Source of the DNA: Promethearchaeati archaeon
GTDB lineage: Archaea; Asgardarchaeota; Heimdallarchaeia; Heimdallarchaeales; Heimdallarchaeaceae
NCBI GenBank assembly: GCA_013166775.1
Contig: JABLTJ010000005.1
Coordinates: forward strand, 139-64,138
Length of the DNA: 64,000 bases
Direction: 5' to 3'
Part shown: in pieces, positions 5,323 through 45,078 of the stretch
How positions within the stretch are numbered: the stretch's first letter is position 1
Layout: each line of letters starts with the position of its first letter
The notes under the pieces: model-generated
The model's input: the letters and a program-made list of their open reading frames with translations, nothing else
Databases searched by the model: none
What the model was told of the DNA's origin: nothing
Program-made: the position numbers and the translations under genes

Positions 5323-5362
5323 TTAACTAAACTTTATTAAATCTTAACAGTTTTAGTATCAC

Positions 5363-26124: not shown

Positions 26125-26859
26125 TTGAAAATGTCAGACAATGTTGGAGTTCTTTTTTGTGGTGGCGAAGGGACAAGAATGCGACCTCTTACCTATTATT
26201 TACAAAAAGTTATGATGCCAATAGGAGAAGATCAAATTCCTTTACTAGAATATGTGATTAAGCATTTTAAGAAACATAATATAAATGATTTAATTCTTCT
26301 GGTTAATTATAAGAAAGAGCAAATACAAGGTTATTTTGAAGAAGGTGAAAGGTGGGGTATGAATTTAACATATGTTCCTGATAAACCTGGATTGAAGGGT
26401 ACAGGAACTGCTCTTTTGAACGCTGAGAATTTCATCAATAAACGAAGAATGATAATTTACTACACCGATATCATTACAAATGTTAATCTTTCAGAAATGC
26501 TAAGTTTTCATGAACAACATAAGAAGTGGGCTACAATTCTGCTTTCAAAAGGTTGGCAAATAAGGGTTGGTACTGCTGAAATCGACAAAGAAAACCACAT
26601 CACTAAATTTGCAGAAAAACCAATTCTTCCTCTGTTTGTAAATACGGGGATAAGTATTTTAGAACCAAGTATATTTGATTATCTTAAAAATTTTGAACCC
26701 AATCAGAGTATAGATCTATCGAAAGATATCTTCCCACACTTTGTCCAAAAGGACAACATTATGGCTTATACTCAAGAGGATTGTTTTTGGGAGGACATTG
26801 GTTCAATTGAACGATATGAGAAACTTGATCATAAAAGGATTACAGAGTTAATGAAATGA
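26125..26859 (+). CDS. sugar-1-phosphate nucleotidyltransferase
   Basis: 244 aa. The N-terminal LFCGGEGTRMRPLT is the GxGxR(x)PLT NTP-transferase signature. Confidence 0.75.
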   Translation: MKMSDNVGVLFCGGEGTRMRPLTYYLQKVMMPIGEDQIPLLEYVIKHFKKHNINDLILLVNYKKEQIQGYFEEGERWGMNLTYVPDKPGLKGTGTALLNAENFINKRRMIIYYTDIITNVNLSEMLSFHEQHKKWATILLSKGWQIRVGTAEIDKENHITKFAEKPILPLFVNTGISILEPSIFDYLKNFEPNQSIDLSKDIFPHFVQKDNIMAYTQEDCFWEDIGSIERYEKLDHKRITELMK

Positions 26860-27369: not shown

Positions 27370-27681
27370 TTATTCTTTAATTTCATTACTTTCAGTTTTT
27401 TTTACTGAATCTTCATTTTTAGTTTGTCTTTTTCTAATCTCCCATATAAAATATGCAACTTCAATTCCTAACCCTATTGCTAGAAGTACATTTATGATTA
27501 TGATTTTATTTCTTAAACCCTCAAAAGAAAACAAGAACTGTTGTACAGATAAGAATATAATATACACTATCACGGTCAAAAGCAACATAATAAAATGAAC
27601 ACTAGATGCTTGATCCAATCGTGGAAGACTTCTCTTCTTCTTTTTTTTCCCATCCTTTACTATTTCTTTCTCTTCATTCAT
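27370..27681 (-). CDS. small two-TM membrane protein
   Basis: 103 aa with a charged N-terminus (KKKKKR), two hydrophobic helices and a charged tail. Its ATG overlaps the mutL stop (ATGA at 27678-27681). Confidence 0.4.
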   Translation of the reverse strand: MNEEKEIVKDGKKKKKRSLPRLDQASSVHFIMLLLTVIVYIIFLSVQQFLFSFEGLRNKIIIINVLLAIGLGIEVAYFIWEIRKRQTKNEDSVKKTESNEIKE

Positions 27682-29501
27682 CTATAATCCCTTTGAAAGA
27701 TTTCTTCTATATATTTCTCGTTTAGGATAATAATTGTAGGTCGTCCATGAGGACATGTAAAAGGCTCTTTTAAAGATAAAAGTTCAGCGATAAGCTTTTC
27801 TGCTTCTCTAACAGAGATTTTATCACCTGACTTTATAGATCTTCTACAGGCAAATAAAGATACTATCTCCTTTATGAAGTCAAGATCCTCTAGCACAAGA
27901 TTTTCTTTGATTTCCTTATTATGCTCTTTGAAAATATCTATTATGTCTTTTGCAACTTCATGTGAGATAGTTACACCCATTATTGATGGAATAGATCTTA
28001 TCAAAATTTCATTCTTACCAAACACCTCAACATCAAAACCATAGACTTTCAATTGTAGCTTCATTTCTTCAATCATTTGAAATTCTGACGGTTTAAGTTG
28101 CACTGAGACAGGAGCTAGTAATTTTTGTACACTAACCTTCATATTTTCTAATTGTCTTAGATACTTTGAATAATTAATTTTTTCGTGGGCTGCATGTTGA
28201 TCACATAAAAGCAATCCTTCTTCTGTTTCTGCTATGATATACGTGCTTTTGATTAAACCTATAACCCTAATGCTTACTTTTTTCTCGATTTGAATTTCTT
28301 TGTCTCTCCCCTTCTTATCACCTTCTGGAAGGAAATGTTCTATTGGTTGATCTCTTCGTTTAATCATCCTAATTGAGGTTTTATCTTCAACAGTTGATTT
28401 AATCCTAGTTGTATCAGAAAATTGAGTGTTTGCAATTACTTTTTCCTTAGAAATTTCCTTGAAAAGAGTAGGTTGTACTCTGGTATCACTAACTCTTTCA
28501 AATATTTTTAATCCGTTTTCAGTTAATGAATTTTGAACACAAGACTCTACAAGACTAAAAATGAAAGGTTCCTTGCTGAATCGTATTTCTTTTTTAGTAG
28601 GATGAACATTGACATCTACTTCTTCTGTAGGTAAATCTAGAAACAGAAACACTATTGGATATCTGTCACTAGGTATGGCGGTACCATACCCTTGTAAAAT
28701 AGCATCTGATATTAGTTTATTAGAAATCGGTCGTTTATTGACAAATATGTACATATAATCTTTGGATTTCCTGGAAAATTCAGGTTTAGTTATAAATCCA
28801 GTAATTAAATAATCATTTTCTTTCTTGTCTATTGATATACAGGCTTTAGCAACTTTATTACCAAAAATAGATGTGATTTGTGAAATTGTATCTCCTTTTG
28901 GAGCAGTGATCAAGCTTTTACCATTATGATTTAGAGAAAAGGAAATATTTGGATACGCTAATGCAAGTTTGGTTGTAAATTCTGTAATGTGATTAATCTC
29001 TGTTGTAATTGATTTCAAGAACTTTCTTCTAACAGGGATATTGAAAAACAAGTTTCTAACGGCAATTCTCGTGCCGTTTGATGCTGTGGTTTTTTTGTTA
29101 ATTTTGATTTCTCCCCCTTTAATTGAAAGAAGTGTTCCTAGCTCATCTTCTTTTGTTTTAGTTGTTATCTCAACTTGAGCTACGCTTACAATACTAGCTA
29201 ATGCTTCTCCTCTGAAACCTAGACTGTGAATAGAAAAAAGATCATCAGCTGTTCTAATCTTGCTTGTTGAATATCTTTGAATTGCTAAAACCGCATCATC
29301 ATGAGACATCCCATTTCCGTTATCCATGATTTCGATTAATTTTTTTCCTCCTTCTTGGATGTTTATGGTGATTTCTGTACTATCAGCATCTATTGAATTC
29401 TCAACAAGCTCTTTTACAACAGAAGATGGTCTTTCGATTACTTCTCCTGCTGCAATTTTATTTATTGTAAGAGAATCTAATTTGATTATTTTCGTTTTCA
29501 T
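27678..29501 (-). CDS. mutL: DNA mismatch repair protein MutL
   Basis: 607 aa. NKIAAGEVIERPSSVVKELVENSIDA is the GHKL ATPase motif; GFRGEAL and the C-terminal ACRRSIKSGD and CPHGRP are also present. Confidence 0.9.
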   Translation of the reverse strand: MKTKIIKLDSLTINKIAAGEVIERPSSVVKELVENSIDADSTEITINIQEGGKKLIEIMDNGNGMSHDDAVLAIQRYSTSKIRTADDLFSIHSLGFRGEALASIVSVAQVEITTKTKEDELGTLLSIKGGEIKINKKTTASNGTRIAVRNLFFNIPVRRKFLKSITTEINHITEFTTKLALAYPNISFSLNHNGKSLITAPKGDTISQITSIFGNKVAKACISIDKKENDYLITGFITKPEFSRKSKDYMYIFVNKRPISNKLISDAILQGYGTAIPSDRYPIVFLFLDLPTEEVDVNVHPTKKEIRFSKEPFIFSLVESCVQNSLTENGLKIFERVSDTRVQPTLFKEISKEKVIANTQFSDTTRIKSTVEDKTSIRMIKRRDQPIEHFLPEGDKKGRDKEIQIEKKVSIRVIGLIKSTYIIAETEEGLLLCDQHAAHEKINYSKYLRQLENMKVSVQKLLAPVSVQLKPSEFQMIEEMKLQLKVYGFDVEVFGKNEILIRSIPSIMGVTISHEVAKDIIDIFKEHNKEIKENLVLEDLDFIKEIVSLFACRRSIKSGDKISVREAEKLIAELLSLKEPFTCPHGRPTIIILNEKYIEEIFQRDYR

Positions 29502-29546
29502 TTAATCACAAGCAAACGATATCATTACAAATACATCTGCTATTTA

Positions 29547-32213
29547 TTATTTTTTATCCTTTAAAAGCTCTTTAGTTCTTCTAACTAAGTTATTTAAAAT
29601 GTTCAAAGCTTCTATGGGAGCTATCTCTTCAACATCCAATTCAGATATCTCACTCACAATCTCAAGTTGTTTTGAAGGAATTTCTTTATCTTTTGAATTC
29701 TTCAGAGAGTTTTCATTTACAGCTAAAGCAGGAGACTCTTTTATTCTATCTTGTTTATGGAGTTGGGATAATGTATCATTTGCACGATCTATCACTTTTT
29801 TTGGTAATCCTGCCAATGATGCAACATGAATTCCAAAACTTTCACTTATACCACCTTCCTTTAATTTATATAGAAAATGTATTTCTCCATCAACATTCTT
29901 AACCGATACATGATAGTTTTTGACATTGGGCAATCTATCTTCTAATTCAATTAATTCATGATAATGGGTGGCAAAGAGTGTTCTTGGTCCTGTTTTACCA
30001 ATGTTGTTGTGTAAGAATTCTGTAACAGATAATGCAATAGCTACGCCATCATATGTAGAGGTCCCTCTTCCTACTTCATCAAGGATTACTAAGCTTCTTT
30101 CAGTTGCATTATTCAGTATGTTTGCACACTCATACATCTCCACCATAAATGTTGATCTATGTTCTACTAGAACATCATGGGCTCCTATTCGTGTAAATAT
30201 TCTATCGGTTAGCCCTATTTTCGCGAAAGAAGAAGGAACGAAACTCCCCATCTGTGCCATAAGAACTATTAACGCAACTTGTCTCAATAGTGTCGATTTT
30301 CCTCCCATATTGGGTCCAGTTATTATAAGTATTCTATCTCCTTCTTTTTTGAGTAATATGTCATTTGGGATAAACGAAGTGTGTGTAAGAAGTCTTTCTA
30401 CAACTGGATGTCTTCCATCCTTGATTTCAATAATACTCTCATTTGTTATTTCAGGTTTGGAATAATTAAAATAAACAGCATTTTGAGCAAAAGTGGAAAC
30501 AATATCGAGCACTGCAGAATAATACGCATCTTGTTGAATCTTTGTTGCATGAAAGGAGATTTCGATTAAAATCTCATTAAACAATTCTTCTTCCAATGCT
30601 GAAATTTTCTCCTCAGCATTCAGTATTTTCTCTTCATATTCTTTTAATTCAGGAGTAACATATCTCTCTGCATTCACTAGTGTCTGCTTTCTTTCATATT
30701 CTGCTGGAACCTTATCTATTGATGCTTTTGGCACTTCAATATAATACCCAAAAACTTTATTGAATCGAACTTTAAGATTTTTAATCCCTGTACTAACTTT
30801 TTCTCTAGCTTCTAACGAAGTGAGAAACGATTTTCCACTTCTCTGAATTTTCCTTAATTCATCAAGTTCTCCATTGTGTTCATCTCTAATTACGTTGCCG
30901 TCTTTCAAACTAGATGGTACTTCATCAGCGATTCCTGATGAGATAATTGCAGTTACTTCTTTAACAGGATCGAGATTCTTTCTAATTTCTTTGATAAGGT
31001 TTGATTTGAAATCTAACAATAAAGAACGGATATCAGGAATTAATTCTAATGAATCCTTAAGAGCAATTAGATCTCTGGGTCTACTCTTCCCTAAGCATAT
31101 TCTCCCAATTATTCGCTGAATATCGCTCATTTTACTGAGAATGTTTCGTATTTCTTCTCGAGCGATAGTTTCCTTGAATAGAATCTCTGTTGCTTCTACT
31201 CTAGACATTATAACCTCAGAGTTCAAACTTGGTCTTACTATCCAAGAAGTAAGTAATCTTGAACCATTTGGAGTTTTTGTGTTATCTAATATTTGACGAA
31301 GCGTGCCATACTCTGTTCTATCTCTTAGATTTTCTATTAACTCAAGATTCCTAATTGTGTTAGAATCAAGAGACATAAATTCCTGGCCTTCTATTCTGCT
31401 AATTTTAGTAATATTTGGAAACTGCTCGCGTAATTGTGTTTCCTTAATGTAACGCAAAATAGATCCAGCAGCACCTATAGATGGATTATATTCTCCAACC
31501 CCGAATCCTTCTAAACTTAAAACGTTTAGAAGACTACAGACATCTTGTCTTCCTTGTTCTATATCAAAGTAATAATCATCTCTATGTGTTATTGTGCTTT
31601 TGTGCTCATCGTGATAGAATTGAAGATTTTTCCAAAAAGATTCTTCCACTAAGATTTCAGAGGGATTCAATCTAGCTAATTCCAATTCAAGTGAATTGTT
31701 ACTTTCATCACTTTCAAAATCAGTTACTAGAAATTCTCCCGTAGACAAATCAAGAGCAGCCAAACCTATTAAATTCTCGATTTTAGTAATAGAAGCAAGA
31801 TAATTGTTATGTCCCTTTGATAGAGATTCAGGAAGAGTGATTGTTCCACGTGTTACGAGCTGAACAACTCCCCTCTTCACCACTTTCTTAGCTGTCTTTG
31901 GGTCTTCAAGCTGTTCAACAATAGCAACTTTATGACCATTTTCAACCATTTTTGAAATATAAGCATCCACTGCATGATAGGGAACGCCAGCTAATGGAAA
32001 TTTCTTCTCACCCAATGTTCTTGAAGTTAATGTTATGTTTAGAACCTCTGAAGCGATTTTTGCATCTTCATTAAAACACTCGTAAAAATCCCCTGCTCTA
32101 AAGAAGAGTATATACTCGTTATGCTGTTTCTTTATATCTTGCCACTGTTGCATCATAGGAGTTAGCTTAGGTTTCAATTTTCTGTCATCGAATTGCTTCA
32201 TCATAATCACCAT
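29547..32213 (-). CDS. mutS: DNA mismatch repair protein MutS (MutS1 type)
   Basis: 888 aa. Motifs: TPMMQQWQDIK, FFRAGDFYECF, Walker A GPNMGGKST, DEVGRGTSTYDG and THYHEL. The start is one of several Met codons at 32201-32213. Confidence 0.95.
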   Translation of the reverse strand: MVIMMKQFDDRKLKPKLTPMMQQWQDIKKQHNEYILFFRAGDFYECFNEDAKIASEVLNITLTSRTLGEKKFPLAGVPYHAVDAYISKMVENGHKVAIVEQLEDPKTAKKVVKRGVVQLVTRGTITLPESLSKGHNNYLASITKIENLIGLAALDLSTGEFLVTDFESDESNNSLELELARLNPSEILVEESFWKNLQFYHDEHKSTITHRDDYYFDIEQGRQDVCSLLNVLSLEGFGVGEYNPSIGAAGSILRYIKETQLREQFPNITKISRIEGQEFMSLDSNTIRNLELIENLRDRTEYGTLRQILDNTKTPNGSRLLTSWIVRPSLNSEVIMSRVEATEILFKETIAREEIRNILSKMSDIQRIIGRICLGKSRPRDLIALKDSLELIPDIRSLLLDFKSNLIKEIRKNLDPVKEVTAIISSGIADEVPSSLKDGNVIRDEHNGELDELRKIQRSGKSFLTSLEAREKVSTGIKNLKVRFNKVFGYYIEVPKASIDKVPAEYERKQTLVNAERYVTPELKEYEEKILNAEEKISALEEELFNEILIEISFHATKIQQDAYYSAVLDIVSTFAQNAVYFNYSKPEITNESIIEIKDGRHPVVERLLTHTSFIPNDILLKKEGDRILIITGPNMGGKSTLLRQVALIVLMAQMGSFVPSSFAKIGLTDRIFTRIGAHDVLVEHRSTFMVEMYECANILNNATERSLVILDEVGRGTSTYDGVAIALSVTEFLHNNIGKTGPRTLFATHYHELIELEDRLPNVKNYHVSVKNVDGEIHFLYKLKEGGISESFGIHVASLAGLPKKVIDRANDTLSQLHKQDRIKESPALAVNENSLKNSKDKEIPSKQLEIVSEISELDVEEIAPIEALNILNNLVRRTKELLKDKK

Positions 32214-33101: not shown

Positions 33102-33191
33102 GTCTTATGGATAAAAAGTATAAGAAGCCAAAATATTTAAAATCGTTTCTTCTCAATCGGTCAAAGAACAAAAAAGACGAGGTTAGTATTA

Positions 33192-35288
33192 ATGAAAATT
33201 ACTAAAGGTACGTTGTTAACTTTTGCTATACTTTCTATTATTAGTGTGTCATTATTACCCATATTTGGTGTAGGCCAAGAAACCCAAGTATCAAACCATA
33301 ATGACAGCTTACAGAACATCAATGAAAATCCCACTAATCAATTTAGAGACGCCATTTATACTGGTGGTGATTATTATGATTATGGGTTAAATGCTACTGC
33401 TAAATTTAACAGAACAGTTAACTTTGAGCATTTTGGGGTAGCATCCATTTTAGATTCGATTGAAGTAAACATAATTGGCAATGTTAATTTAACCTATTTC
33501 AACTATACATTACCTAATTTAAATACAGGAAATATAACATTCATCAGCTTCCGTGTAGCAAATAATTCACTTGAGGATATCGCATACAAAAACGCAACTC
33601 GAACCTATACCTTTAGTAGTTTAATAAATTACACAACATATCTGGTTCCATTTTATGAAAACAGAACCGAAATTGGTATGGGTGATAAATACTATATTAG
33701 TGTCTACATTGAATTAGCACAACCTTTTGACTATACTATTGTAAACAAAGAACAACTATTGCATTTCTCTGAACTTTTCTATCCTCTCATAAACAACATT
33801 CCAATCATTAGTAATAGTTCGGTTGTGGTGAATAAGCAAGGTAATGACCTTTTTGTTGATAATGAAGAGTTTCGAATAACTCCAAACAATTCAACAGAAA
33901 ATCTCATTCTCCTTAGTTTACCTGAACAAGATAGATTAGAATGGACCAATATCACAAGACATCCTTTCAATTACAGTCAAGAATATGATGATGACTTGAT
34001 TATGAATGTTTATGTCTCATCTGTGAGCACAGTTGAAGCATTAGAAGATGCTACTAACACAATTTTATTCAAAGCAAATTATGTTCATCGCACAGTAGAA
34101 ATTGACCCTTATGGTCTAGCTATTGTAACTGAAGAACAAAATCTTGTTTTCCTAGGACCTGATTGGCCAGAAGATACGTCTCTGATTCTTGTCAAATTAT
34201 ATGGTTTAAATGCATTTACTATTGTTCTTCCTGCAAATGCAACGATTCTAGCATTAGACGATGAAATTGGAGGATTGAATTTGTTGTATCAATTGGATGA
34301 AGACACTTTCTTCGAAAGAGGGTCTTACAATTTACGTGAAAGTATCTTTACAGGACTTCAAGGATTAGTTATATTCCCACGATCCCCTCTTTTCAAAGGG
34401 GATGAGATGACTTTCACAATCAAGTATAAAGTTCCGTTGGATGTATTTTTATCTAGAGAAGAATCAACCACCAATTACAAGTTAAGACTCAGTCCATGCT
34501 CTATTATTAATTGGACAGTGGATGAGTTGAAATTGGATATAATCTTACCTAAAGGTGCAGTATATCGTTCTTACAACTATTTTAGTCCTGACCCATATCA
34601 GGAATTCGTTTTGGGCTATGATAGGACTTTTGATTTAAGCAGTCTTGGTTTCAAAAGAACTCTTCACTTTTCTACAACAGTATTTTCCGGAAGTGATAAT
34701 GCTCCTATTGAAGTGCTTTTTACTTATAATAGAGCAAATCTTTGGATTACTTATTTCTTCCAGATAATTGCAGTTGGTATAATTTTCGCTATTTATCTAG
34801 GAATTAGATACTCTACAAAAGCAGCAAAGGAAATCATTGGTGAAGAGGAGAAAGAATCCATTCCTACTGATGAAGTTGAGGAATTTGTTAAACAATACGA
34901 AGAGGTTTTAGCACTTAGAGAAAGATTACGTGAAACCCGAGCAAAAATAGCTTCCAAGAAACTGAAAGCAAGACAAGGAAAGGAAATCCAAACACAACTG
35001 CAAAAACGTTTACGTGCTGAAGAAGAAGGTTTGAAACTTGCAAAACAAAATCTTGTCCAACATGGAAGAAGATACAAAGAATCCGTTCAAAAAGTTGAGA
35101 TAGCTGAACGAAAACTCCTAGAAGAGAGAAGAAACCTTAGATTACTTCAGCAAGAATATAGAGAAAAGAAAACCATGACTAAGGAATCCTATGTTAAACT
35201 ATTCAGAGAGAGACAACAAACAATTGAAAAACTAAAGAACGAGATCAATGGGATTCTTGTAACCCTAAGAATGCTTTTAGAACCTTAA
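33192..35288 (+). CDS. ribophorin I / OST1-like type-I membrane protein with coiled-coil cytoplasmic tail
   Basis: 698 aa with a signal peptide, a sequon-rich ectodomain, one TM helix (about 34740-34805) and a K/E/R/Q coiled-coil tail. Four colinear blocks resemble mammalian ribophorin I from memory: HRTVEIDPYGLAIVTEEQNL, FTIVLPANA..DDEIGG, FPRSPLFKGDEMTFTIKYKVP and LDIILPKGA. Confidence 0.65.
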   Translation: MKITKGTLLTFAILSIISVSLLPIFGVGQETQVSNHNDSLQNINENPTNQFRDAIYTGGDYYDYGLNATAKFNRTVNFEHFGVASILDSIEVNIIGNVNLTYFNYTLPNLNTGNITFISFRVANNSLEDIAYKNATRTYTFSSLINYTTYLVPFYENRTEIGMGDKYYISVYIELAQPFDYTIVNKEQLLHFSELFYPLINNIPIISNSSVVVNKQGNDLFVDNEEFRITPNNSTENLILLSLPEQDRLEWTNITRHPFNYSQEYDDDLIMNVYVSSVSTVEALEDATNTILFKANYVHRTVEIDPYGLAIVTEEQNLVFLGPDWPEDTSLILVKLYGLNAFTIVLPANATILALDDEIGGLNLLYQLDEDTFFERGSYNLRESIFTGLQGLVIFPRSPLFKGDEMTFTIKYKVPLDVFLSREESTTNYKLRLSPCSIINWTVDELKLDIILPKGAVYRSYNYFSPDPYQEFVLGYDRTFDLSSLGFKRTLHFSTTVFSGSDNAPIEVLFTYNRANLWITYFFQIIAVGIIFAIYLGIRYSTKAAKEIIGEEEKESIPTDEVEEFVKQYEEVLALRERLRETRAKIASKKLKARQGKEIQTQLQKRLRAEEEGLKLAKQNLVQHGRRYKESVQKVEIAERKLLEERRNLRLLQQEYREKKTMTKESYVKLFRERQQTIEKLKNEINGILVTLRMLLEP

Positions 35289-35403
35289 ATTCTCACTCAT
35301 TTTTCTTTTCTTTATTTTTATTCCTTTTTTTTCCTTTGGATACTCTACAAATATTTATAAGAAAATGAATTGAAACTTCTTTAACAGATAACTGAGTGTA
35401 AAC

Positions 35404-35808
35404 ATGCATCTTGAAAGTGTTATTGAAAGTGCCGAAGTCATAAAGAAAGAGGTTCCTGGATTATCTGAAGTAGCAAAAGAACTAGCAAGAGTTCTAAAGA
35501 AGGGAAGATTTTTTTTGAATAAGCTATTTGATATTTGCAGTAGAGAGGGACTGAACATAGATTTAAATCCAGAAGAACAGAATGAAATTTCATTGAAGGT
35601 TGCTTTAGTAACAAATCCAGACCAAGTTTTTCAATATGCACGTGTTGTTCAACTAGTTTTTCAGTTGAACTATTTTACTAAATGTTATGAGAAAGCAATA
35701 GGACACGGAAAATTATCTGATTCTGTGAAAAAAGAAGCAAAAACAATTTTAAAAGAAATTGATAGATTCAGAAAATTAATAGAAAAAGAGTATGTTGCAA
35801 GCATTTAA
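35404..35808 (+). CDS. hypothetical helical protein
   Basis: 134-aa ORF, all-helical by composition, with no recognisable motif. The two antisense ORFs in the track are less plausible. Confidence 0.35.
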   Translation: MHLESVIESAEVIKKEVPGLSEVAKELARVLKKGRFFLNKLFDICSREGLNIDLNPEEQNEISLKVALVTNPDQVFQYARVVQLVFQLNYFTKCYEKAIGHGKLSDSVKKEAKTILKEIDRFRKLIEKEYVASI

Positions 35809-35890: not shown

Positions 35891-36655
35891 ATGCTTAACG
35901 AGAAAGAAAAAGAGAAATATAATAGACAAACAATAATACCAAATTTTGGTCAAAAGGGCCAAATAAAATTAAAAAACAGCAAAGTATTGGTCATAGGATT
36001 AGGGGGGCTTGGTTCAGCAGTTTTACATTATCTAGTATGTGCTGGTGTCGGATACATTGGAATAGTTGACAAAGACAAAGTAGAACTATCTAATCTGAAT
36101 AGACAAATTCTTCATTATGAAACAAGCGTTGGTAAGAACAAAACTACTTCAGCTAAAGATAAAATGAATCAACTTAATCAGGACGTATTAATTGAGGAAT
36201 TTAATCTAACGCTAGATGAGGAGAATATTGAATCTATTATATCAGGATATGATTTTATAGTGGAAGCTAGTGATAATTTTGAAACTAAATTCTTGGTAAA
36301 TGACACTTGTGTAAAAATAGGGATTCCTTTTGTAATAGGGGGAGTTCATCAATTCGAAGGACAGATAATTACTGTAATTCCCAAATTTTCTGCTTGTTAT
36401 CGTTGCGTTTTCAAAGAGATACCTGAAAAAGGGTCTTATCCAACAACATCTGAGGAAGGAATAATTGGAACAACAGCAGGTCTTTTTGGAGTTGTTGAAG
36501 CAAATGAAGTCATTAAATTTCTTGTTTTCAAGGATTATGGTAAATTGCTAGTTAACAAGATGCTGTATATAGATTTACAATACAATACATTTGATACTTT
36601 CCAAGTAAATAGGGATGAAACTTGTAGTATTTGTTCAGAAAATCACAATAAATGA
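35891..36655 (+). CDS. ThiF/MoeB/UbaA-family E1-like adenylyltransferase
   Basis: 254 aa. It has the GLGGLGSAVLHYLVCAGVGYIGIVDKDKVELSNLNRQ nucleotide-binding motif and two CxxC pairs (CYRC, CSIC). Confidence 0.85.
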   Translation: MLNEKEKEKYNRQTIIPNFGQKGQIKLKNSKVLVIGLGGLGSAVLHYLVCAGVGYIGIVDKDKVELSNLNRQILHYETSVGKNKTTSAKDKMNQLNQDVLIEEFNLTLDEENIESIISGYDFIVEASDNFETKFLVNDTCVKIGIPFVIGGVHQFEGQIITVIPKFSACYRCVFKEIPEKGSYPTTSEEGIIGTTAGLFGVVEANEVIKFLVFKDYGKLLVNKMLYIDLQYNTFDTFQVNRDETCSICSENHNK

Positions 36656-36729: not shown

Positions 36730-37422
36730 ATGAAGAGGATGAAACATATACCTATTGATGAAGATAAAGAAATCGAAGATCCTTATTCTTCAACTCCTGT
36801 GAGGAGGATTATAGGGCATCATACTCTCGATATGCTCAGCTTTCAGAATTTGTCAAACATATATATGATAATTGCACCAATTGTGGTTTTAGTAATTCTT
36901 GTAGCTATAAAGTTGGGAACCTTTGCAATTTTGATCAATAAAATGAATTTTGAACCATCATTGAATCCTAATCTAAATGTAGACTTCATGAGAATAAAAG
37001 AAAGTCTCTACTTGGGGATTCTAGTTACTACTATACCTCAAATTCTACTGTGGGCAACATTATTATACCCTCTACTTAAAATGCTGGGGGGAAAAGGAGA
37101 TTATTTTAGAACATTGTCTATATATAGTACAGCCCATATCCCTGTTGTTATAGGTTCTTTCATTTTGTTGTTGATAGCTATTGCTCAACCAATAGCAACA
37201 ATTCCCACAAATGTGGAAAATTTCAACATTGTTGAAGCTTTCAACTATGTAACACAAGGTTATAGAATAGCAAATTTCATCATACTTCCAGTAACATCAC
37301 TTTATACTCATGTAATTGCAGGAACAGGTTTGGGTGCTGAGCATAAAATACCTCAACTTCTTGGAATAATTATAGGAGTTATAGCAAGTATTTTAGCAAT
37401 TCTGTTCTATTTCTTGGTATAA
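36730..37422 (+). CDS. Yip1-domain-like membrane protein
   Basis: 230 aa with about 5 TM helices. LKMLGGKGDYFRTLSIYSTAHIPVVIG repeats the LGGxG....GY..P pattern seen in the ORF at 7722. Confidence 0.5.
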   Translation: MKRMKHIPIDEDKEIEDPYSSTPVRRIIGHHTLDMLSFQNLSNIYMIIAPIVVLVILVAIKLGTFAILINKMNFEPSLNPNLNVDFMRIKESLYLGILVTTIPQILLWATLLYPLLKMLGGKGDYFRTLSIYSTAHIPVVIGSFILLLIAIAQPIATIPTNVENFNIVEAFNYVTQGYRIANFIILPVTSLYTHVIAGTGLGAEHKIPQLLGIIIGVIASILAILFYFLV

Positions 37423-37483: not shown

Positions 37484-38482
37484 ATGATAAAAACCAATAT
37501 CTCCTTAATTGGCTGTGGTGCTGTAGCCGAATATTATCATCTTCCTGTATTGCAAAGGATGCCAGAGTTTAATATTAAATATCTGGTGGATTTAGACCAA
37601 AACAGATCTACATACTTAAAAAAACTATATAGGTTAGAGTCAGAGACGGTAGATGACTTAGATATTGTTCTAAAAGACGATCAAATTGACGCTGTTTTAC
37701 TGCTAACCCCCCCTAAGTTACATAAAGATCAAATTGTCAAAGCAGCTAAAGCTGGAAAACATATATTTTGTGAAAAACCATTGGCAATGGATAATGAAGA
37801 AACTAAGGAGATTCTGCAGGTGTGCAAACAAGAAAATGTTAATCTTCTCGTAGGTTATCAAATGCGCTTTGATGGAAAATATTCTAAGATTAAGGAATTA
37901 ATTTCCAAAAAATTGTTTGGAGAGATTATTGGAGGTCATGGTTTACATTTTGCTAATGCTTTTGAGTGGCCTAGTATAACAAAGTTCCAGACTGATAGAA
38001 GTCAAGGCGGTGGGGCATTATTTGAAATGATGCATTTTGTTGATCTTACCACCTGGTTTTTTGGTAAAGCAATATCATTACAATCACAAATTTCAACAAG
38101 AAATAAGAAATCTCAGGTAGATGATAGCGCTTATCTTTCAATTAATTTTGAAAACGATATTCATGTTTCTCTTCATATAGGTTGGAACAAATTAACTGTT
38201 AACTCTTTTACAGTTTTTGGAACAGAAGGTTATGTAAGAGCACTTTCTGATACAAAGAAACTACATTTTCATGCTAAAGATCTTCTTGCCCAACCTCCTA
38301 TTTTGATAAGACCTAATCACAGTATTTCCCCCTTCCATGATGAATTATTACATTTTCATAACATAGTTCAAGGAAAAGAAAAACCTATTACAACTGCTAA
38401 CGAAATACTGCAAAATTCTGTAATTATAGAAAAATCATATGAGCAGCAATCAGAAAGCAACTTAATTCACTTGGGGGAATAA
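37484..38482 (+). CDS. Gfo/Idh/MocA-family NAD(P)-dependent oxidoreductase
   Basis: 332 aa. It has an N-terminal Rossmann segment ISLIGCGAVAEYYHLP, the catalytic-region motif EKPLAM, and length and layout typical of the family. Confidence 0.85.
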   Translation: MIKTNISLIGCGAVAEYYHLPVLQRMPEFNIKYLVDLDQNRSTYLKKLYRLESETVDDLDIVLKDDQIDAVLLLTPPKLHKDQIVKAAKAGKHIFCEKPLAMDNEETKEILQVCKQENVNLLVGYQMRFDGKYSKIKELISKKLFGEIIGGHGLHFANAFEWPSITKFQTDRSQGGGALFEMMHFVDLTTWFFGKAISLQSQISTRNKKSQVDDSAYLSINFENDIHVSLHIGWNKLTVNSFTVFGTEGYVRALSDTKKLHFHAKDLLAQPPILIRPNHSISPFHDELLHFHNIVQGKEKPITTANEILQNSVIIEKSYEQQSESNLIHLGE

Positions 38483-38486
38483 TGTA

Positions 38487-39548
38487 ATGTCCTTGGTGGT
38501 AGTAAAAACAGAAGTAGATCTTTCAAATCTAGATAAGAATGTTAGTGATGCTTTGAAGGAACTTAACTTTGAAATTAAGGACAATGACATCATCACCATT
38601 AAGCCAAATCTATGCGATTACAGACCCTCTGAGCAAGGAGGGACAACAGATCCTCTTGTTGTCGAAGCAGTGATCAAATATATTAGAACCTTATCTAATT
38701 GTCCAATAAACATTGTTGAGAGTGATCATGCTTTAGCAATTGCTGATGATGAATTTGAGAGAATGGGATATTTGTATTTGGAGAAAGAATATGAGAATGT
38801 TAAAGTTATTAATTTAACTAAAGAAAAGCACCACAGGTTATATCTCGGTGGATTTTATTTTGATGAATTCTCAGCACCAGAAGTGTTACTTAAAACAACC
38901 AAATTAGTTAATGTTGCTAAATTAAAAACACATACGCAAACAAAGATTACTTGCATTTTAAAGAATCAGTTTGGTCTGGTGTCCCGAAGATACAAGAAAA
39001 GATATCATCCTTTTCTAAGTGAAGTGATTCTAGATCTCATCAAACTGTTTCCCCCAACTCTTTCAATAATAGATGGGCTAGTTGCTATGGAAGGCTCCGG
39101 TCCCTCTGATGGAGATCGAAGAGATTCTAAAATCCTTATTTGTGGTAATGATCCAGTAACAACTGATATTATTGCAGCGCGAGTAATGGGTATTAAACCT
39201 CTGACTGTACCTGTAATAAAGCTGGCAAAGAAAAAGAAGGTTAGTAACCTAAAATACAATCTAATAGGTACTCTGCCCAAACTGAAATTCAAACACATGC
39301 CGTGGTATTCTTATCTTATGCGACGATATGGTTTAAATTCACATAAGAGAGCTGCTAGAAAATATGCAAAGAAGAAAAAGAGATCTGAATTCTATTCAGA
39401 TGTAGCTGCTGGCTTTCTTGTTCTAAAACAAGGAAATTATTCCACTCTACAATCAGGACTTATTGATAGACAAATTTTCTTCAGAGTTTTCAAGGGGATG
39501 CTAAAACGACCTTTTGTTAGAATTAAGTTAAAACTAAAAGGTATTTAG
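38487..39548 (+). CDS. DUF362-domain protein with highly basic C-terminal tail
   Basis: 353 aa. IITIKPNLC, VESDHA, AKLKTHTQT and IIDGLVAMEGSGP fit my memory of DUF362. The last about 90 residues are rich in K/R. It starts 4 nt after the stop of the upstream gene. Confidence 0.55.
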   Translation: MSLVVVKTEVDLSNLDKNVSDALKELNFEIKDNDIITIKPNLCDYRPSEQGGTTDPLVVEAVIKYIRTLSNCPINIVESDHALAIADDEFERMGYLYLEKEYENVKVINLTKEKHHRLYLGGFYFDEFSAPEVLLKTTKLVNVAKLKTHTQTKITCILKNQFGLVSRRYKKRYHPFLSEVILDLIKLFPPTLSIIDGLVAMEGSGPSDGDRRDSKILICGNDPVTTDIIAARVMGIKPLTVPVIKLAKKKKVSNLKYNLIGTLPKLKFKHMPWYSYLMRRYGLNSHKRAARKYAKKKKRSEFYSDVAAGFLVLKQGNYSTLQSGLIDRQIFFRVFKGMLKRPFVRIKLKLKGI

Positions 39549-39600
39549 TGAGGTCTAAAATACAACAAACTTTTTTATTTCTTCTTTCTTTCTGAATCCT

Positions 39601-40170
39601 ATGGGTGAAGAAAAGAATTATTTTGTACATCCTTCTGCATTTGTTGAAGATAATGTAACTATTGGAACTGATACTAAAATCTGGCATCAAGTTCAAGTAA
39701 GGACCGGTGCAAAAATAGGAAGCAATTGCATATTTGGAAAATCAGTCTTCATTGATACTAATGTTACTATTGGGGATAATGTGAAGATTCAAAACCTTGT
39801 TTCTGTTTATCAAGGCGTTACTATTGAAGATGATGTTTTTGTTGGACCACATGTTTGCTTTACTAATGATCTTCTACCTAGAGCGACATCCCCCGAATGG
39901 ACAATAATTAAAACATTAGTGAAAAAAGGTGCTTCAATTGGTGCCAATTCTACAATAATCTGTGGTATAACAATAGGTGAATACTCCATGATTGGAGCTG
40001 GAAGTTTAGTCTCTAGAGATGTTCAACCCTTTACTTTAGTTTTTGGCAACCCAGCAAAGTTGCGAGGGTATGCATGCTTCTGTGGGGAAATTCTTAGAAA
40101 GACAGATGAACCTCTTCCAGCTGGTACAATTCTTCATTGTAGTGAATGTAAACGTGATGTGATGCTGTAA
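39601..40170 (+). CDS. hexapeptide-repeat N-acetyltransferase, WbpD/WlbB-like
   Basis: 189 aa. FVHPSAFVEDNVTIGTDTKIWHQVQVRTGAKIG...KIQNLVSVYQGVTIEDDVFVGP...GANSTIICGITIGEY is colinear with WbpD-type UDP-2-acetamido-3-amino-2,3-dideoxy-glucuronate acetyltransferases (from memory). It has an extra C-terminal CFCG...CSEC ribbon. Confidence 0.75.
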   Translation: MGEEKNYFVHPSAFVEDNVTIGTDTKIWHQVQVRTGAKIGSNCIFGKSVFIDTNVTIGDNVKIQNLVSVYQGVTIEDDVFVGPHVCFTNDLLPRATSPEWTIIKTLVKKGASIGANSTIICGITIGEYSMIGAGSLVSRDVQPFTLVFGNPAKLRGYACFCGEILRKTDEPLPAGTILHCSECKRDVML

Positions 40171-40390
40171 TCATTGAAACGCTTTATTCAATAAGAAAAC
40201 CTTGTTTTTTTTAATCAGCTATTGAACCAAATTTTTGATTAGCTAATTTTCTGTGGATATCCTTTTATAGAATATCTATATGGGGGTACATCACATACAG
40301 CTCGAAGCGACAGTGTTACAAAAATATAAATGTCATAACTGACAAAATAGAAAATGATTCGCTAAAGATAATGTGATTTGGGGTGATCAA

Positions 40391-40600
40391 ATGAATCTAA
40401 TATCGATTAGACTTCCAAGTGAGTTCGTAGAAATTCTTGATGAAATGGTTCTGCAGGGAAAATATGCTTCAAGATCAGAAGCAATAAGACTAGCTTTACG
40501 TGATTTTTATAGAGAGCATTATGCTTCAAAACAATCAACAGATTTCCGATTTCCTAATATGGAATTCGCTTACAAGAATGTGATTTTTGAAGACGATTAA
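40391..40600 (+). CDS. ribbon-helix-helix (CopG/NikR-N-like) DNA-binding protein
   Basis: ISIRLPSEFVEILDEMVLQGKYASRSEAIRLALRDF is a canonical RHH. GGTGAT lies just upstream of ATG 40391. The ORF track begins at GTG 40373. Confidence 0.65.
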   Translation: MNLISIRLPSEFVEILDEMVLQGKYASRSEAIRLALRDFYREHYASKQSTDFRFPNMEFAYKNVIFEDD

Positions 40601-40725
40601 GCTATATTTCTTTACTAGATACCTTGCTGGATAACTTGATATAACGCTAGATTTAACAAAGGGAGAAAGAGAAGAATATTAAACTAGTCGTAAACAATTC
40701 TTTCAAAATAATTTAGAGTAATTAG

Positions 40726-41793
40726 GTGAGTGATTTGGTAGATGGTGAAGAAAAAGAAACTACTCAGAAGAGCCTTACGTCTACAAATGATGAAATTACT
40801 CAAGATGAAAAATCACAAAACTTCTTCAATAGACTAAATTTGAGGTATTCAAATTTCAAACAAAGAACTTCAAATAAATTAGATCCTATAGCTGAAAAGT
40901 TTTCACCTCTTACTTCTTTTCTCAAAAAAAGATATTTACGATATGCAATATCGTCAATATTAGTAGCTTTTGTGATTTATTTTTATGTAATGTACGAAAT
41001 ATCTAGAGGAGCAGAGACGGTGAAGATACTGTTCCGTGATACTAATACTAACCATCTTGTACCCCTTGGATTAGTTTTAGCTTTCATAGCAGTTTTGTAT
41101 GTGACTTGGGATGATAACATATTCAAAAAGTACAGAAAACCTGGTTTATATGTGGTACTTCTAACAACTATCTTCTACGTTCTAATTTTTTCAGGTATTG
41201 ATACATATCTCTTTGAATTATCAATTGCAAAGTGGTTAACTAGGTTAACAGGATTAATTGTTCCCTATACCCTCCGTTTTTTTGGTTTAAATGTTACTAG
41301 TATAGAGTGGAACGAGGCTCGAATTAATACTTTTATAGGTTTAGGAGAGCCAAGTAAAACCCCTGGTCTCTTAATTGATCCAAGATGTAGTGGGATACAT
41401 TCTATGACAATTTTCATTTTCATTTTTCTGCTAATGCTATTTGAAGCAAGAAAAAAGATACATTGGAATCACAAAGCAGTTGGAGTAACCATAATTGGAA
41501 TCCTAGGGACCTATCTAATGAATTTCCTAAGAATCACAATAGTTATGCTCACCTTCTACTATGGAGGAACCAATTTAGGAGAATCAGTACATAATGTTCT
41601 AGGATATGTACTTCTAGTTATATGGCTTCCAATCTTCTGGTTGTTTATTCTACCTTTAGCTGAAAAAGGGAGAATATTCAGAAAGAAGAAAGCTAAGGAA
41701 ATGGAAGCAAGTAGAGACGATATTACAAAAATAGGCGAAAGTGAGGAAAAAGCCCAATCAGAAAATTCAGAGAAAGATCACCTATCCAATTAG
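40726..41793 (+). CDS. archaeosortase/exosortase-family transpeptidase
   Basis: 355 aa (GTG start) with about 8 TM helices. The conserved Cys lies in LIDPRCSGIHS (about 41386), the Arg in MNFLRITIV (about 41530) and a downstream His in ESVHNVLGY. The termini are hydrophilic. Confidence 0.65.
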   Translation: MSDLVDGEEKETTQKSLTSTNDEITQDEKSQNFFNRLNLRYSNFKQRTSNKLDPIAEKFSPLTSFLKKRYLRYAISSILVAFVIYFYVMYEISRGAETVKILFRDTNTNHLVPLGLVLAFIAVLYVTWDDNIFKKYRKPGLYVVLLTTIFYVLIFSGIDTYLFELSIAKWLTRLTGLIVPYTLRFFGLNVTSIEWNEARINTFIGLGEPSKTPGLLIDPRCSGIHSMTIFIFIFLLMLFEARKKIHWNHKAVGVTIIGILGTYLMNFLRITIVMLTFYYGGTNLGESVHNVLGYVLLVIWLPIFWLFILPLAEKGRIFRKKKAKEMEASRDDITKIGESEEKAQSENSEKDHLSN

Positions 41794-42936
41794 CACTTTT
41801 TCATATACTTTTTGGGTGAGATTTACTGTTTCTTTCCAAGAGTATTTTTCCGCAATTTTTAGTGATTTTTCTCTTATTGTATCTAAGGTTTGTTTATTCT
41901 GATTCAGTTCAATGATTTTATCAGCGATATCTTGAATCTCTCTTGGGGCAAGAATGATGGTATCATTATGATCAAAGGTTGCTGCTTGCGGAGTAGAGAT
42001 AATTGGTACTTGACACGCTAATGCTTCCAAAAGAGTTAAATTCATGCCCTCGTGGCTGGAAGGGAGTAGAAAAACATCTAGGGAACTTAAGAAAGCATTT
42101 TTTTTCTCAATATCATAGATATATCCAAAATCTACAATATTCTCCTCAAGACTATGATTTTTTATTATCTTTCGAATATCAGTTCTAGTGTTTAAATCAT
42201 CACCTGCTAGAAGCAGTTTTACATTAGGGATGCTTTTTTTAACTTTCCTAATTATTGGGAAAAGAAGTTTAGCCCCTTTTCCTGCTGTCATTCTCCCTAG
42301 AAATCCTAAAACAAATTCGTCTTCTTTTTTAGTGTAAAGTTTCTTGCTTGTTCTATGATGAGTTGTTAAATCCACTCCATTTGGAATAACAGTAATTTTT
42401 TCTTCAGAGATTGAGTAATTTGTCATTAATTCGTTTTTTATTGTTTCACTAACTGCTATTATGTGTCTTGCTCTTTTTAATAATCTCATCTCAATTTTTT
42501 TTAGCCAAGGATACAGCAACAATACTCTTTTTTCAACCCAACTTAAAGAATGAAAAGGTTCAGATTTAGCACCTCTTCTCTCTCTACTGAAAGTTGTATG
42601 AACCGTCTCAATAATGGGATAATCATCTTTTATTCCTAAAGATGAAAGAAGATTCATATTTCCATGAACAATTTCTGGTTTGATTTTGTTTACCACAGTC
42701 GAGGATTTTCTCCAAAAATTACGAGAGTAAAACAATTTAGATGAAGATGTTGCAACAAGTTTGAGCGATATATTTTTTCCAAACTTCGATTCAGTAGAAT
42801 CTTTTTTTTCTGCAGCAATAATATGAGGTTCCCATATCTGCTCTTTCTTTAATTCACTAGCTAAATGATAACAATAAACCCAAGTAGCACCTTTCAGATA
42901 TTCTTGTGTTAACAAACAAACATTTTTCCTTTTCAT
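41782..42936 (-). CDS. GT4-family glycosyltransferase
   Basis: 384 aa with the E-x7-E region EGMNLTLLEALACQVPIIST and a GT-B layout. Confidence 0.85.
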   Translation of the reverse strand: MKRKNVCLLTQEYLKGATWVYCYHLASELKKEQIWEPHIIAAEKKDSTESKFGKNISLKLVATSSSKLFYSRNFWRKSSTVVNKIKPEIVHGNMNLLSSLGIKDDYPIIETVHTTFSRERRGAKSEPFHSLSWVEKRVLLLYPWLKKIEMRLLKRARHIIAVSETIKNELMTNYSISEEKITVIPNGVDLTTHHRTSKKLYTKKEDEFVLGFLGRMTAGKGAKLLFPIIRKVKKSIPNVKLLLAGDDLNTRTDIRKIIKNHSLEENIVDFGYIYDIEKKNAFLSSLDVFLLPSSHEGMNLTLLEALACQVPIISTPQAATFDHNDTIILAPREIQDIADKIIELNQNKQTLDTIREKSLKIAEKYSWKETVNLTQKVYEKVLIG

Positions 42937-43832
42937 TTTTTTACATCACCAAATAATTGATCATATTCAATAACAGGAAAATCTGTTTGAGTTTGAATAA
43001 ATTCACTGTGAGTTAAAGTTTGCATATCTAGCTTGATTGCTAAATTAACAATTTCCTTTAGTAGATTATTGAGCTTTATTGGTTCATATATTGAATGAAC
43101 ATATAAGCAGATGTATTTTTTTCCTAAATCTACACATTCCTCAAATCGTTTTCTATACTCTTTTTTTATCTGATTTAGCGTTTTTCCTTGAAGGATGAAT
43201 TCTTCGATAGATGTCTCAGTTACAGGTAGTTGAGGAATTTGGAAAGATTTCTTTTGATTTCCTCTACCTTTGAATTGAAGATTAATGGGAATAGGATGAT
43301 ATAGATCGGAACTAAAACTAAAATTTTCTTCCTTTAGCAAGTGAAAATAATGTTTGTTTATCTGAAAATTCGGTGCAGCATTAGCTATGGGTCTCCGACT
43401 AAAGATTTTTGTGTACTCTTCTATTAGTGATTCTACATTTTCTTTTGTTTTCTCATAACTTAATCCACTAAAAGATTTGGACCATTTCACGTGATTGTAC
43501 CCATGAGGATGAAATTCAATTAATTTTTCAGTGTTATATTCCTGAAGTTTCCTTATTTCATTCTCTTTTATTCCTCTAGGTGGTAATAACAAACCTCGAA
43601 CAATGCTTTTAGGATGATTTCTTTTCCATAGAGGTATTCTTTTTTCCGTTATCTCTTTATTTTTAATTATGCGAAAAAGATTTCTTCCAGTGGCATACTT
43701 CCCCAAACTAAGATAAATTGTTACAGAACATTCTAGTTTTAAAGCAAAATCAACCACTTTAGGGATTCCTAATTTTAAACCTTCAAATGTATCAACATCG
43801 ACCCTAAGACAGAAGTTTGTTTCGGTGGTCAT
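42933..43832 (-). CDS. polysaccharide deacetylase (NodB/ArnD-like)
   Basis: 299 aa. The N-terminal CLRVDVDT and the later HPHGYNH resemble ArnD-type deformylase/deacetylase metal sites. It overlaps the downstream GT4 gene by 4 nt. Confidence 0.6.
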   Translation of the reverse strand: MTTETNFCLRVDVDTFEGLKLGIPKVVDFALKLECSVTIYLSLGKYATGRNLFRIIKNKEITEKRIPLWKRNHPKSIVRGLLLPPRGIKENEIRKLQEYNTEKLIEFHPHGYNHVKWSKSFSGLSYEKTKENVESLIEEYTKIFSRRPIANAAPNFQINKHYFHLLKEENFSFSSDLYHPIPINLQFKGRGNQKKSFQIPQLPVTETSIEEFILQGKTLNQIKKEYRKRFEECVDLGKKYICLYVHSIYEPIKLNNLLKEIVNLAIKLDMQTLTHSEFIQTQTDFPVIEYDQLFGDVKK

Positions 43833-43857
43833 TTATTTCGATTCTCTTTGTTTGGAT

Positions 43858-45078
43858 TTATTTCTTCTTTTCTAATGTCTTATAATATATCTGTTCAATT
43901 TCTTTAGCTTTCTTCTCCCAAGTATAGTTTTGTTTAATTTCCTCATAACCTAATGAGGCTAATTCCTCTGCTTTTTGCTCAGATTTCAATAGGTTCAGAA
44001 TTGCATCTGCTATACCCTCGTTTTCTTTTGCAGGCACTAAGACGCAATTTTTACCATTGTTAGTTATCTCTCTTATTCCAGGAATATCTGATGCAACTAC
44101 TGGTTTATTCATAGCCATCGCTTCAAGGACGCTAATGCTTGAAGCTTCTACGATGCTAGGAACAACGACAATATCAGCTACTGCTAAATATGCAGGTACT
44201 TCTTTGTTTGCTACCATACCTATAAAGTGAACATTCTTTACAATCCCCAATTCGTTTATTTCCTTGGTAATTCGTGCTTTCTCTGGTCCATCTCCAATAA
44301 TAATTAATTTTGCTTTTGGGAATTTTTCAACAACTTTCTTGAAAGCTTTCACCAAGTACAACACACCGTTTTTAACAACTAATCGTCTAGTTGTCATAAC
44401 TATAGGTCCTTCTTCCTCTTTCAAGAGTAAATTTGGCTTAATGTTTGGTGAGAATATATCTGTATCCACACCATTTAAAACAGTATTAATTTTTGCTTTT
44501 GCTTTTACATTACACCAATTTTTTACGGTTTCTGCAAAATCATAATCTGTGTGGATTTGGTAATGGCATCTTTTAGCGAGATATGGTGCCAATCTCTTTT
44601 CCATTTGTCTATAAAATAATACAGTTAGAGGATTTTTTACTAATTGTTTCCAATATTTGTAATATGATCCATGAATGGTGTTAATTACTTTGGACTGTCT
44701 TACTTTTCCTAAGGACAAAGCTGTTAATCCAGCAGAGTAGACGTGACCATGAATGATGTCATACTTCTCATTTTCTAGTATCTTGTTTTTTTGTGTTAAT
44801 TTTGTTTTTAAGAGAAAGAAGAGCTGTCTTGTAAAATTCAACTGTTGCGGATTATATGATCGTTTTATTAATGATAAGAAGTCAAGTCTTTTGTAATTAA
44901 CTCCTTCAATAGATATTTTTTCTCTACAATTTGGTATTGCTCCAGTGAAATACGTTACTTTATGTCCCAATTTGACTAGTTCTTTTGATATACTATATGC
45001 GTGAAGCTCTACTCCTCCACCAATGCTTCCGGAGTCATCAGGTCCTAGCTCAAACAACATTGCGATATTTAATGTCAT
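43858..45078 (-). CDS. GT4-family glycosyltransferase
   Basis: 406 aa. Motifs: GGVELHAYSISKEL and EASSISVLEAMAMNKPVVASD. Confidence 0.85.
   Translation of the reverse strand: MTLNIAMLFELGPDDSGSIGGGVELHAYSISKELVKLGHKVTYFTGAIPNCREKISIEGVNYKRLDFLSLIKRSYNPQQLNFTRQLFFLLKTKLTQKNKILENEKYDIIHGHVYSAGLTALSLGKVRQSKVINTIHGSYYKYWKQLVKNPLTVLFYRQMEKRLAPYLAKRCHYQIHTDYDFAETVKNWCNVKAKAKINTVLNGVDTDIFSPNIKPNLLLKEEEGPIVMTTRRLVVKNGVLYLVKAFKKVVEKFPKAKLIIIGDGPEKARITKEINELGIVKNVHFIGMVANKEVPAYLAVADIVVVPSIVEASSISVLEAMAMNKPVVASDIPGIREITNNGKNCVLVPAKENEGIADAILNLLKSEQKAEELASLGYEEIKQNYTWEKKAKEIEQIYYKTLEKKK

Follow-up and report, generated by a model that had tools for sequence, protein, structure and literature searches.

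Organisation of the locus

The window, by which we mean the whole 64 kb stretch of DNA that was analysed, belongs to a Heimdallarchaeaceae genome. It has a GC content of approximately 33% and is spanned from end to end by called genes with Pfam annotation; no tRNA genes were found in it. Its forward strand carries a complete open reading frame (33192–35288, +) with an ATG start, encoding a homologue of ribophorin I/OST1 of 698 aa plus a stop codon. The gene had been the subject of a preliminary description made from the sequence, and we find that the reading frame is real and that all of the features described for it are present. A putative promoter and ribosome-binding region lies upstream (33130–33183, +), with a TATA-like AAAATATTTAAAAT at 33130–33143 and a Shine–Dalgarno-like GAGGT at 33179–33183, both called from the letters and without an archaeal promoter model. 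On the other side of the gene, a presumed intergenic region (35300–35360, +), likewise read from the sequence, contains a T-rich run (35300–35335) resembling a putative archaeal terminator and then a TATA-like AAATATTTATAA (35349–35360). Beyond it lies a gene for a conserved, soluble helical protein of 134 aa (35404–35808, +), to which we return below. An archaeosortase-like gene and a glycosyltransferase cluster are found 5–13 kb downstream of the OST1 homologue.

Identification of the protein as ribophorin I/OST1

Ribophorin I/OST1 is one of the eukaryotic signature proteins that link the beginnings of the eukaryotic secretory pathway with the Asgard archaea. The assignment of this gene to the family was originally made by resemblance to stretches of mammalian ribophorin I (RPN1), and it is borne out by independent searches. 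The protein scores above the gathering cut-off of the Pfam model PF04597 (41.4 bits versus 25, E = 1.3e-10), in a match that covers only profile positions 291–435 of 437 and corresponds to aa 390–537. A profile constructed from an alignment of 29 family members was searched against PDB sequences and found human RPN1 (6S7O_E, 8B6L and others) with E = 7e-12, yeast Ost1 with E = 4e-5 and PDB 8WHN with E = 1.2e-4. The HMMER alignment with RPN1 pairs residues 286–642 of the query with RPN1 219–572, running through the transmembrane (TM) helix and into the tail. Four blocks (34086–34145, 34215–34274, 34374–34436 and 34533–34559) had been singled out as RPN1-like; their positions are exact and all four are paired by HMMER with the RPN1 segments originally proposed.

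The structure predicted by AlphaFold (AF2) has a mean pLDDT of 77 and consists of a β-rich ectodomain (aa 68–511) followed by a long TM helix and then another four helices. When this model was compared with the PDB using Foldseek, the best eight matches were all human RPN1 (8B6L_O, 6S7O_E, 6S7T_E and 8PN9_E) or yeast Ost1 (7OCI_A, 8AGB_E, 6C26_1 and 6EZN_A), with E-values from 4e-27 to 7e-19; the next fold appeared only at 6e-7. Target TM-scores against RPN1/Ost1 reached 0.75, with an rmsd of approximately 5 Å over approximately 500 columns, and lay between 0.69 and 0.75 for the luminal part of RPN1 and Ost1. The alignments with RPN1 from ribosome-bound OST-A are approximately 165–175 columns longer than that with RPN1 from OST-B, which is consistent with the predicted tail being aligned as well. 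Since the top Foldseek matches are all RPN1/Ost1, the N-terminal domain of the ectodomain, which is invisible to the Pfam HMM, is also an OST1 fold in the predicted structure. A significant PF04597 match is thus accompanied by a model that superposes on RPN1/Ost1, and, as judged by Pfam, by profile-to-PDB comparison and by AF2 with Foldseek, the gene product is a true ribophorin I/OST1 homologue, an identification that these three approaches fully support.

Close homologues number 48, all from Heimdallarchaeota/Heimdallarchaeaceae metagenome-assembled genomes (MAGs) and all with PF04597; the closest, in two MAGs, are 89–90% identical. When the family profile was used in a word-indexed search, it recovered the very 48 Heimdallarchaeaceae proteins that the single sequence had found, and an exhaustive HMMER profile search gave 537 relatives at E ≤ 0.001. 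The wider family takes in Bathyarchaeota proteins of 609–611 aa.

Membrane topology, ectodomain and sequons

The protein begins with a signal-peptide-like segment (aa 1 to approximately 28; 33192–33275, +), in which K2 and K5 are accompanied by a hydrophobic core and then GVG/QE. Hydropathy windows exceed 1.6 over aa 3–30, in keeping with the signal peptide anticipated in the preliminary description, and the AF2 model has a helix at 5–25 followed by disorder. As these judgements come from hydropathy and AF2, the signal and its cleavage site are putative. Next comes a linker predicted to be disordered (aa 29–66; 33276–33389, +), which is poorly conserved (26% mean identity across the family) and falls within a region of pLDDT below 50 (aa 21–63).

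The ectodomain proper is modelled as two β domains with 56–58% mean identity in the family. The first, an N-terminal β-sandwich (aa 67–290; 33390–34061, +), has predicted strands at 68–276 with pLDDT values of 80–90 and gave no sequence match to the PF04597 HMM; it is also the site of most of the conserved sequons. The second is membrane-proximal (aa 291–514; 34062–34733, +), contains the four RPN1-like blocks and was aligned by HMMER to RPN1 219–438 and Ost1 314–445. It leads into a TM helix whose hydrophobic core (aa 517–538; 34740–34805, +) coincides with the single helix predicted earlier at about 517–538. By hydropathy, the surrounding segment (aa 515–541) is the sole TM segment apart from the N-terminal one, making two hydrophobic segments in total, and in the AF2 model this region is a helix at 515–548. 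With its signal-like start, large ectodomain and one C-terminal TM helix, the protein has the layout of a type I membrane protein by hydropathy and AF2.

The ectodomain measures 489 aa, against a first estimate of about 490, and all 17 of the protein's N-x-S/T sequons (x not P) fall within it, where at least 15 had been counted previously. Composition-preserving shuffles gave an expectation of 6.8 ± 2.3 sequons, and the fraction of shuffles reaching 17 was 0.0002, so the number is beyond chance. Ten of the 17 (N67, N73, N104, N124, N146, N233, N253, N260, N349 and N440) recur in 27 or more of 29 homologues, and the median number of sequons per protein in the family is also 17. Given this conservation and the family median, the enrichment reflects selection rather than composition. 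The protein is a candidate type I membrane glycoprotein, whose modelled ectodomain, of two β-sandwich domains, superposes on RPN1/Ost1 together with the TM helix.

The cytosolic tail

The TM helix is followed by a tail of 160 aa (aa 539–698), rich in E, K, L, R and Q and with a net charge of +10 (39 K + R, 29 D + E). No other part of the protein is so well conserved: mean identity is 72% over 29 homologues. In all 29 the tail is 160–163 aa long and its net charge lies between +7 and +15, and many of its K and R residues are invariant in the family alignment. The AF2 model divides most of the tail into a predicted cytosolic four-helix domain (34866–35273, +) with helices at 559–587, 593–622, 626–658 and 664–694 (pLDDT approximately 80–87), each of 29–33 residues, with short loops between them where G and T are conserved; the four helices may pack into a bundle.

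The closest structural reference for this domain is archaeal. The cytosolic domain of OST1 from MK-D1 (residues 449–607) has been solved as PDB 8WHN and is a four-helix bundle, its counterpart in human RPN1 being residues 465–607 (Carilo et al. 2024, PMC11417166). The single sequence of our protein matches 8WHN ('Ribophorin 1 superfamily protein') over aa 554–693 with E = 0.012, and for a profile made from the tail alone 8WHN is the sole significant match among PDB sequences (E = 4.8e-5), extending over 150 of 161 residues with one short gap. The similarity is low (23.6–26.5 bits), and the tail-only profile by itself did not reach the tail of human RPN1 in the PDB sequence search. By sequence comparison, the tail and the four-helix bundle of MK-D1 OST1 are homologous. 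The tail thus represents the canonical RPN1-type cytosolic domain, as is normal for OST1 in Asgard archaea and mammals.

These comparisons revise one element of the preliminary description, which had seen an unusually long coiled-coil tail of about 160 aa. The length and the K/E/R/Q-rich composition stand. In view of the homology to 8WHN, the four predicted helices and the relatives that match to approximately position 693 (as most of the 537 found by exhaustive HMMER do), the tail is neither unusually long, its length matching that of RPN1 465–607 and MK-D1 OST1 449–607, nor a plain coiled coil. A module for coiled-coil oligomerisation or for tethering to the cytoskeleton, in place of a ribosome-docking bundle, would account for the composition and for weak matches to SMC, M protein and kinesin stalks (E = 0.3–6). 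However, the AF2 model splits the tail into four helices with short loops, and in the search of PDB sequences with the tail-only profile generic coiled-coil proteins appeared only at E ≥ 0.1, leaving the solved bundle 8WHN as the only significant match. We therefore consider such a module very improbable indeed, and treat the tail as a predicted ribosome-docking bundle in what follows.

For this function there is precedent in the homologues. The C-terminal domains of MK-D1 OST1 and of human RPN1 both pull down ribosomes, although for archaeal OST1 this result is limited to the Lokiarchaeal domain and to human ribosomes (PMC11417166). In mammals, the bundle is in contact with eL28 as well as with rRNA helices H25 and H19/20, and yeast Ost1p is without the cytosolic four-helix extension (PMC6761772).

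Genomic context

No AglB/STT3 gene had been seen adjacent to OST1 in the preliminary description, and the same is true of the whole window: there are no STT3/AglB or OST3/6 Pfam domains among the called genes covering the 64 kb, and a six-frame search gave no WWDxG AglB/STT3 motif. One W.DYG occurrence was discarded as spurious, lying inside a stop-rich frame. Small OST and TRAP subunits were also sought among the unannotated reading frames of the window; the only match, of a 210-aa ORF (2838–3470, −) to TRAP_alpha, was sub-threshold (E = 0.0045) and unsupported by a single-sequence PDB search, and was rejected.

As the window lacks genes for OST partners, nothing in the gene neighbourhood speaks for the formation of a complex. 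Ribophorin has been classed as a eukaryotic signature protein universal to the Asgard archaea, and it is reported, as are OST3 and STT3, from all Asgard phyla (PMC8813620); homologues of all eight OST subunits have been reported in Heimdallarchaeia (PMC10307638); and the glycosylation genes of Asgard archaea are reported to be dispersed (PMC11284389). Given this dispersal and the Asgard-wide occurrence of OST subunits, the lack of a neighbouring AglB/STT3 gene is expected and normal in Asgard archaea.

The same surroundings raise the question of whether the protein could be a stand-alone surface glycoprotein, associated with the S-layer or involved in adhesion, that has the β-sandwich fold of ribophorin but acts outside an OST complex. 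Characterised archaeal AglB enzymes are single-subunit, which would favour such a role, as would the absence of OST genes from the 64 kb window, the archaeosortase-like gene and glycosyltransferase cluster 5–13 kb downstream, and the 17 strongly conserved sequons, which are typical of archaeal surface glycoproteins. This explanation sits poorly with a similarity that extends over the full length of the protein, with luminal domains, TM helix and cytosolic domain in the order of RPN1, and with a cytosolic tail that is the best-conserved part and would be irrelevant at the cell surface. Heimdallarchaeia also have homologues of the whole set of OST subunits (PMC10307638), and we judge a stand-alone surface role to be highly unlikely.

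A 134-aa protein linked to OST1

Possibly new here is an uncharacterised helical protein of 134 aa that is linked to OST1 throughout the clade; its place in the system is drawn from this linkage. Its gene lies directly downstream of OST1, on the same strand and at approximately +2.2 kb, in 26 of 31 related loci, and within approximately 2.5 kb of OST1 in two closed Candidatus Heimdallarchaeum genomes. The other three loci end at or within the OST1 gene, so that the linkage is seen in 28 of 28 informative loci. The pair stays intact despite rearrangements of the flanks and is inverted as a unit in four loci. The protein is soluble, AF2 predicts five helices with a pLDDT of 92, and its mean column identity (70%) is above that of OST1. 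It has no match in Pfam or NCBIfam; against the PDB, the best Foldseek E-value was 0.67 and a profile search gave E ≥ 0.1. The idea that it is a paralogue of the OST1 tail was tried and rejected (hhalign probability 0.1%).

These observations invite the proposal that the 134-aa protein serves the OST1 tail as a cytosolic partner or regulator specific to this clade, making OST1 a two-protein module. Its presence in all 28 loci whose sequence extends far enough downstream, the survival of the pair through flank rearrangement and inversion, and the fact that it is soluble, confidently folded and more conserved than OST1 all speak for a partnership. Yet gene order is conserved across the region in this clade, with DeoC in 31 of 31 loci and MutS in 29 of 31, and the linkage may be no more than inherited gene order. 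In Candidatus Heimdallarchaeum, moreover, the 134-aa gene and OST1 lie on opposite strands and are separated by ThiF, and the 134-aa gene is missing next to more divergent OST1 genes. The T-rich run and TATA-like element that separate the two genes in our locus suggest, at the level of sequence, that the 134-aa gene has its own promoter, and Pfam, NCBIfam and the PDB offer no functional clue. A two-protein module therefore seems doubtful to us. That the 134-aa protein acts with OST1 in the Heimdallarchaeaceae, and could bind or regulate its ribosome-docking tail, is rather unlikely; if true, it would be a clade-specific accessory factor of an archaeal ribosome–translocon–OST assembly. Because synteny is generally conserved and the gene is absent beside divergent OST1 genes, functional coupling between the two is only a possibility.

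Proposed function

The gene is very probably the Heimdallarchaeial orthologue of ribophorin I/OST1, a non-catalytic OST subunit that would associate with AglB/STT3 and dock ribosomes. Published work on its homologues suggests that, at the cell membrane, it would join the catalytic AglB/STT3 and the other Asgard OST subunits, whose genes presumably lie in other parts of the genome. The basic four-helix bundle of the tail would dock the large subunit of the ribosome at the Sec61 translocon, where nascent chains could be scanned co-translationally for N-x-S/T sequons in the manner of mammalian OST-A. Its own ectodomain is probably N-glycosylated as well, at around ten conserved sequons. We know of no experimental demonstration that an archaeal AglB assembles with an OST1 homologue.

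The protein is a textbook Heimdallarchaeial copy of OST1 with a predicted ribosome-docking tail of the mammalian type. It agrees with the published view that the coupling of translocation and N-glycosylation during translation predates eukaryotes and was lost secondarily in yeast. No new principle emerges; the value of the analysis lies in a multiply verified annotation and in the small lead provided by the 134-aa protein.

Comparison with known OST1 proteins

OST1 homologues have been reported in the Heimdallarchaeaceae group since 2017; a ribophorin I/OST1 of this kind is already known, and its identification here is correct. Ribophorin I homologues of Heimdallarchaeia are orthologues of approximately 695–702 aa with 45–61% full-length identity to our protein; they include HeimAB125_05010 of Candidatus Heimdallarchaeota archaeon AB_125 (P0021) and, at 45% identity, the copies in the closed genomes of Candidatus Heimdallarchaeum aukensis and endolithica. 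There is no structural difference between these proteins and the one described here, which is another species-level member of the group. The Lokiarchaeal MK-D1 OST1 (WP_147663064.1, Candidatus Prometheoarchaeum syntrophicum) has the same order of signal, ectodomain, TM helix and cytosolic domain of approximately 160 aa, but is shorter (607 versus 698 aa), the excess in our protein lying in the N-terminal linker and ectodomain.

Human RPN1 (6S7O_E, 8B6L_O, 6S7T_E) shares with the archaeal protein a two-domain luminal fold, a TM helix and a cytosolic helical domain (Foldseek E = 4e-27, target TM-score 0.74 for the luminal part), at only approximately 15% identity in the Foldseek alignment. The archaeal protein differs in having an additional disordered linker of approximately 40 aa and 17 sequons, and presumably resides in the cell membrane, whereas RPN1 is found in the endoplasmic reticulum. 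For yeast Ost1p (6C26_1, 6EZN_A, 7OCI_A, 8AGB_E) the match takes in the TM helix and the luminal fold (Foldseek E-values from 1.5e-20 to 7e-19), but Ost1p is missing the cytosolic four-helix extension; with this predicted extension in place, the Heimdallarchaeial protein is mammal-like rather than yeast-like.

Conserved gene neighbourhood of OST1

The neighbour of OST1 (35404-35808, + strand) encodes a conserved, soluble protein of 134 aa with five helices, for which no relative was found in Pfam, NCBIfam or the PDB. Wherever downstream sequence is available, in 28 Heimdallarchaeaceae loci, it is linked to OST1; it is also better conserved than OST1 itself. Immediately upstream of DeoC and OST1 lies a bacterial-type MutL-MutS mismatch-repair gene pair (27678-32213, − strand), a position kept in 29 of the 31 related loci.

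In Heimdallarchaeaceae, the pair formed by OST1 and the 134-aa protein gene is neighboured by a gene for the E1-like protein ThiF (35891-36655, + strand), which directly abuts the pair in several loci and in Ca. Heimdallarchaeum. The more divergent Asgard OST1 genes have a ThiS/MoaD-like gene just upstream (5508-5861 and 5168-5455 in loci L036 and L037, respectively, each in its own coordinates). DeoC is close by in both settings, so the proximity of ThiF or ThiS/MoaD-like genes to OST1 may represent ancient synteny.

Glycan biosynthesis and an archaeosortase-family protein

A glycan-biosynthesis neighbourhood (37484-46082 and 49924-52728) encodes three GT4 and one GT2 glycosyltransferases, a GFO/IDH/MocA oxidoreductase, a DUF362 protein and a hexapeptide acyltransferase; an NTP-transferase further upstream (26131-26859) is counted with it. 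The 550-aa product of 49924-51576, which has 11 TM helices and whose only match is a weak one to DUF6541, may be a GT-C enzyme or a polymerase. A gene for an exosortase/archaeosortase-family membrane protein (40990-41793, + strand, start possibly at 40735) separates the OST1 region from the glycosyltransferase cluster, a place it keeps in 17 of 31 loci. Its product matches TIGR04178 (E = 2e-13), and the nearest named type is archaeosortase C, although it scores under the cut-off for that type.

Other membrane and surface proteins

The 210-aa type I membrane protein encoded at 2838-3470 (− strand) has a signal peptide, a sequon-bearing ectodomain, a TM helix towards the C-terminus and a short K/R tail. 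It matches Pfam TRAP_alpha below threshold (E = 0.0045; 16.7 bits, where the cut-off is 24.7) and may be an Asgard TRAP-alpha homologue; a single-sequence PDB search gave no support for this identity. The 228-aa ORF at 6935-7621 (+ strand), with no family match, many N-x-S/T sequons and a C-terminal TM helix, is probably another surface glycoprotein. Two Yip1-domain membrane proteins are also encoded (36730-37422 and 7731-8552, both + strand), one exceeding the Pfam cut-off and the other carrying a zinc ribbon and matching Yip1 weakly.

Fold of the OST1 N-terminal ectodomain

For residues approximately 67-290 of the OST1 AlphaFold2 model, the Foldseek matches ranking next below human RPN1 and yeast Ost1 were the N-terminal beta domains of the M1-family aminopeptidases LTA4H, ERAP1 and IRAP (E approx. 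1e-6 over approx. 240 columns). These matches suggest that this predicted part of the ectodomain shares a fold with a peptide-binding accessory domain.
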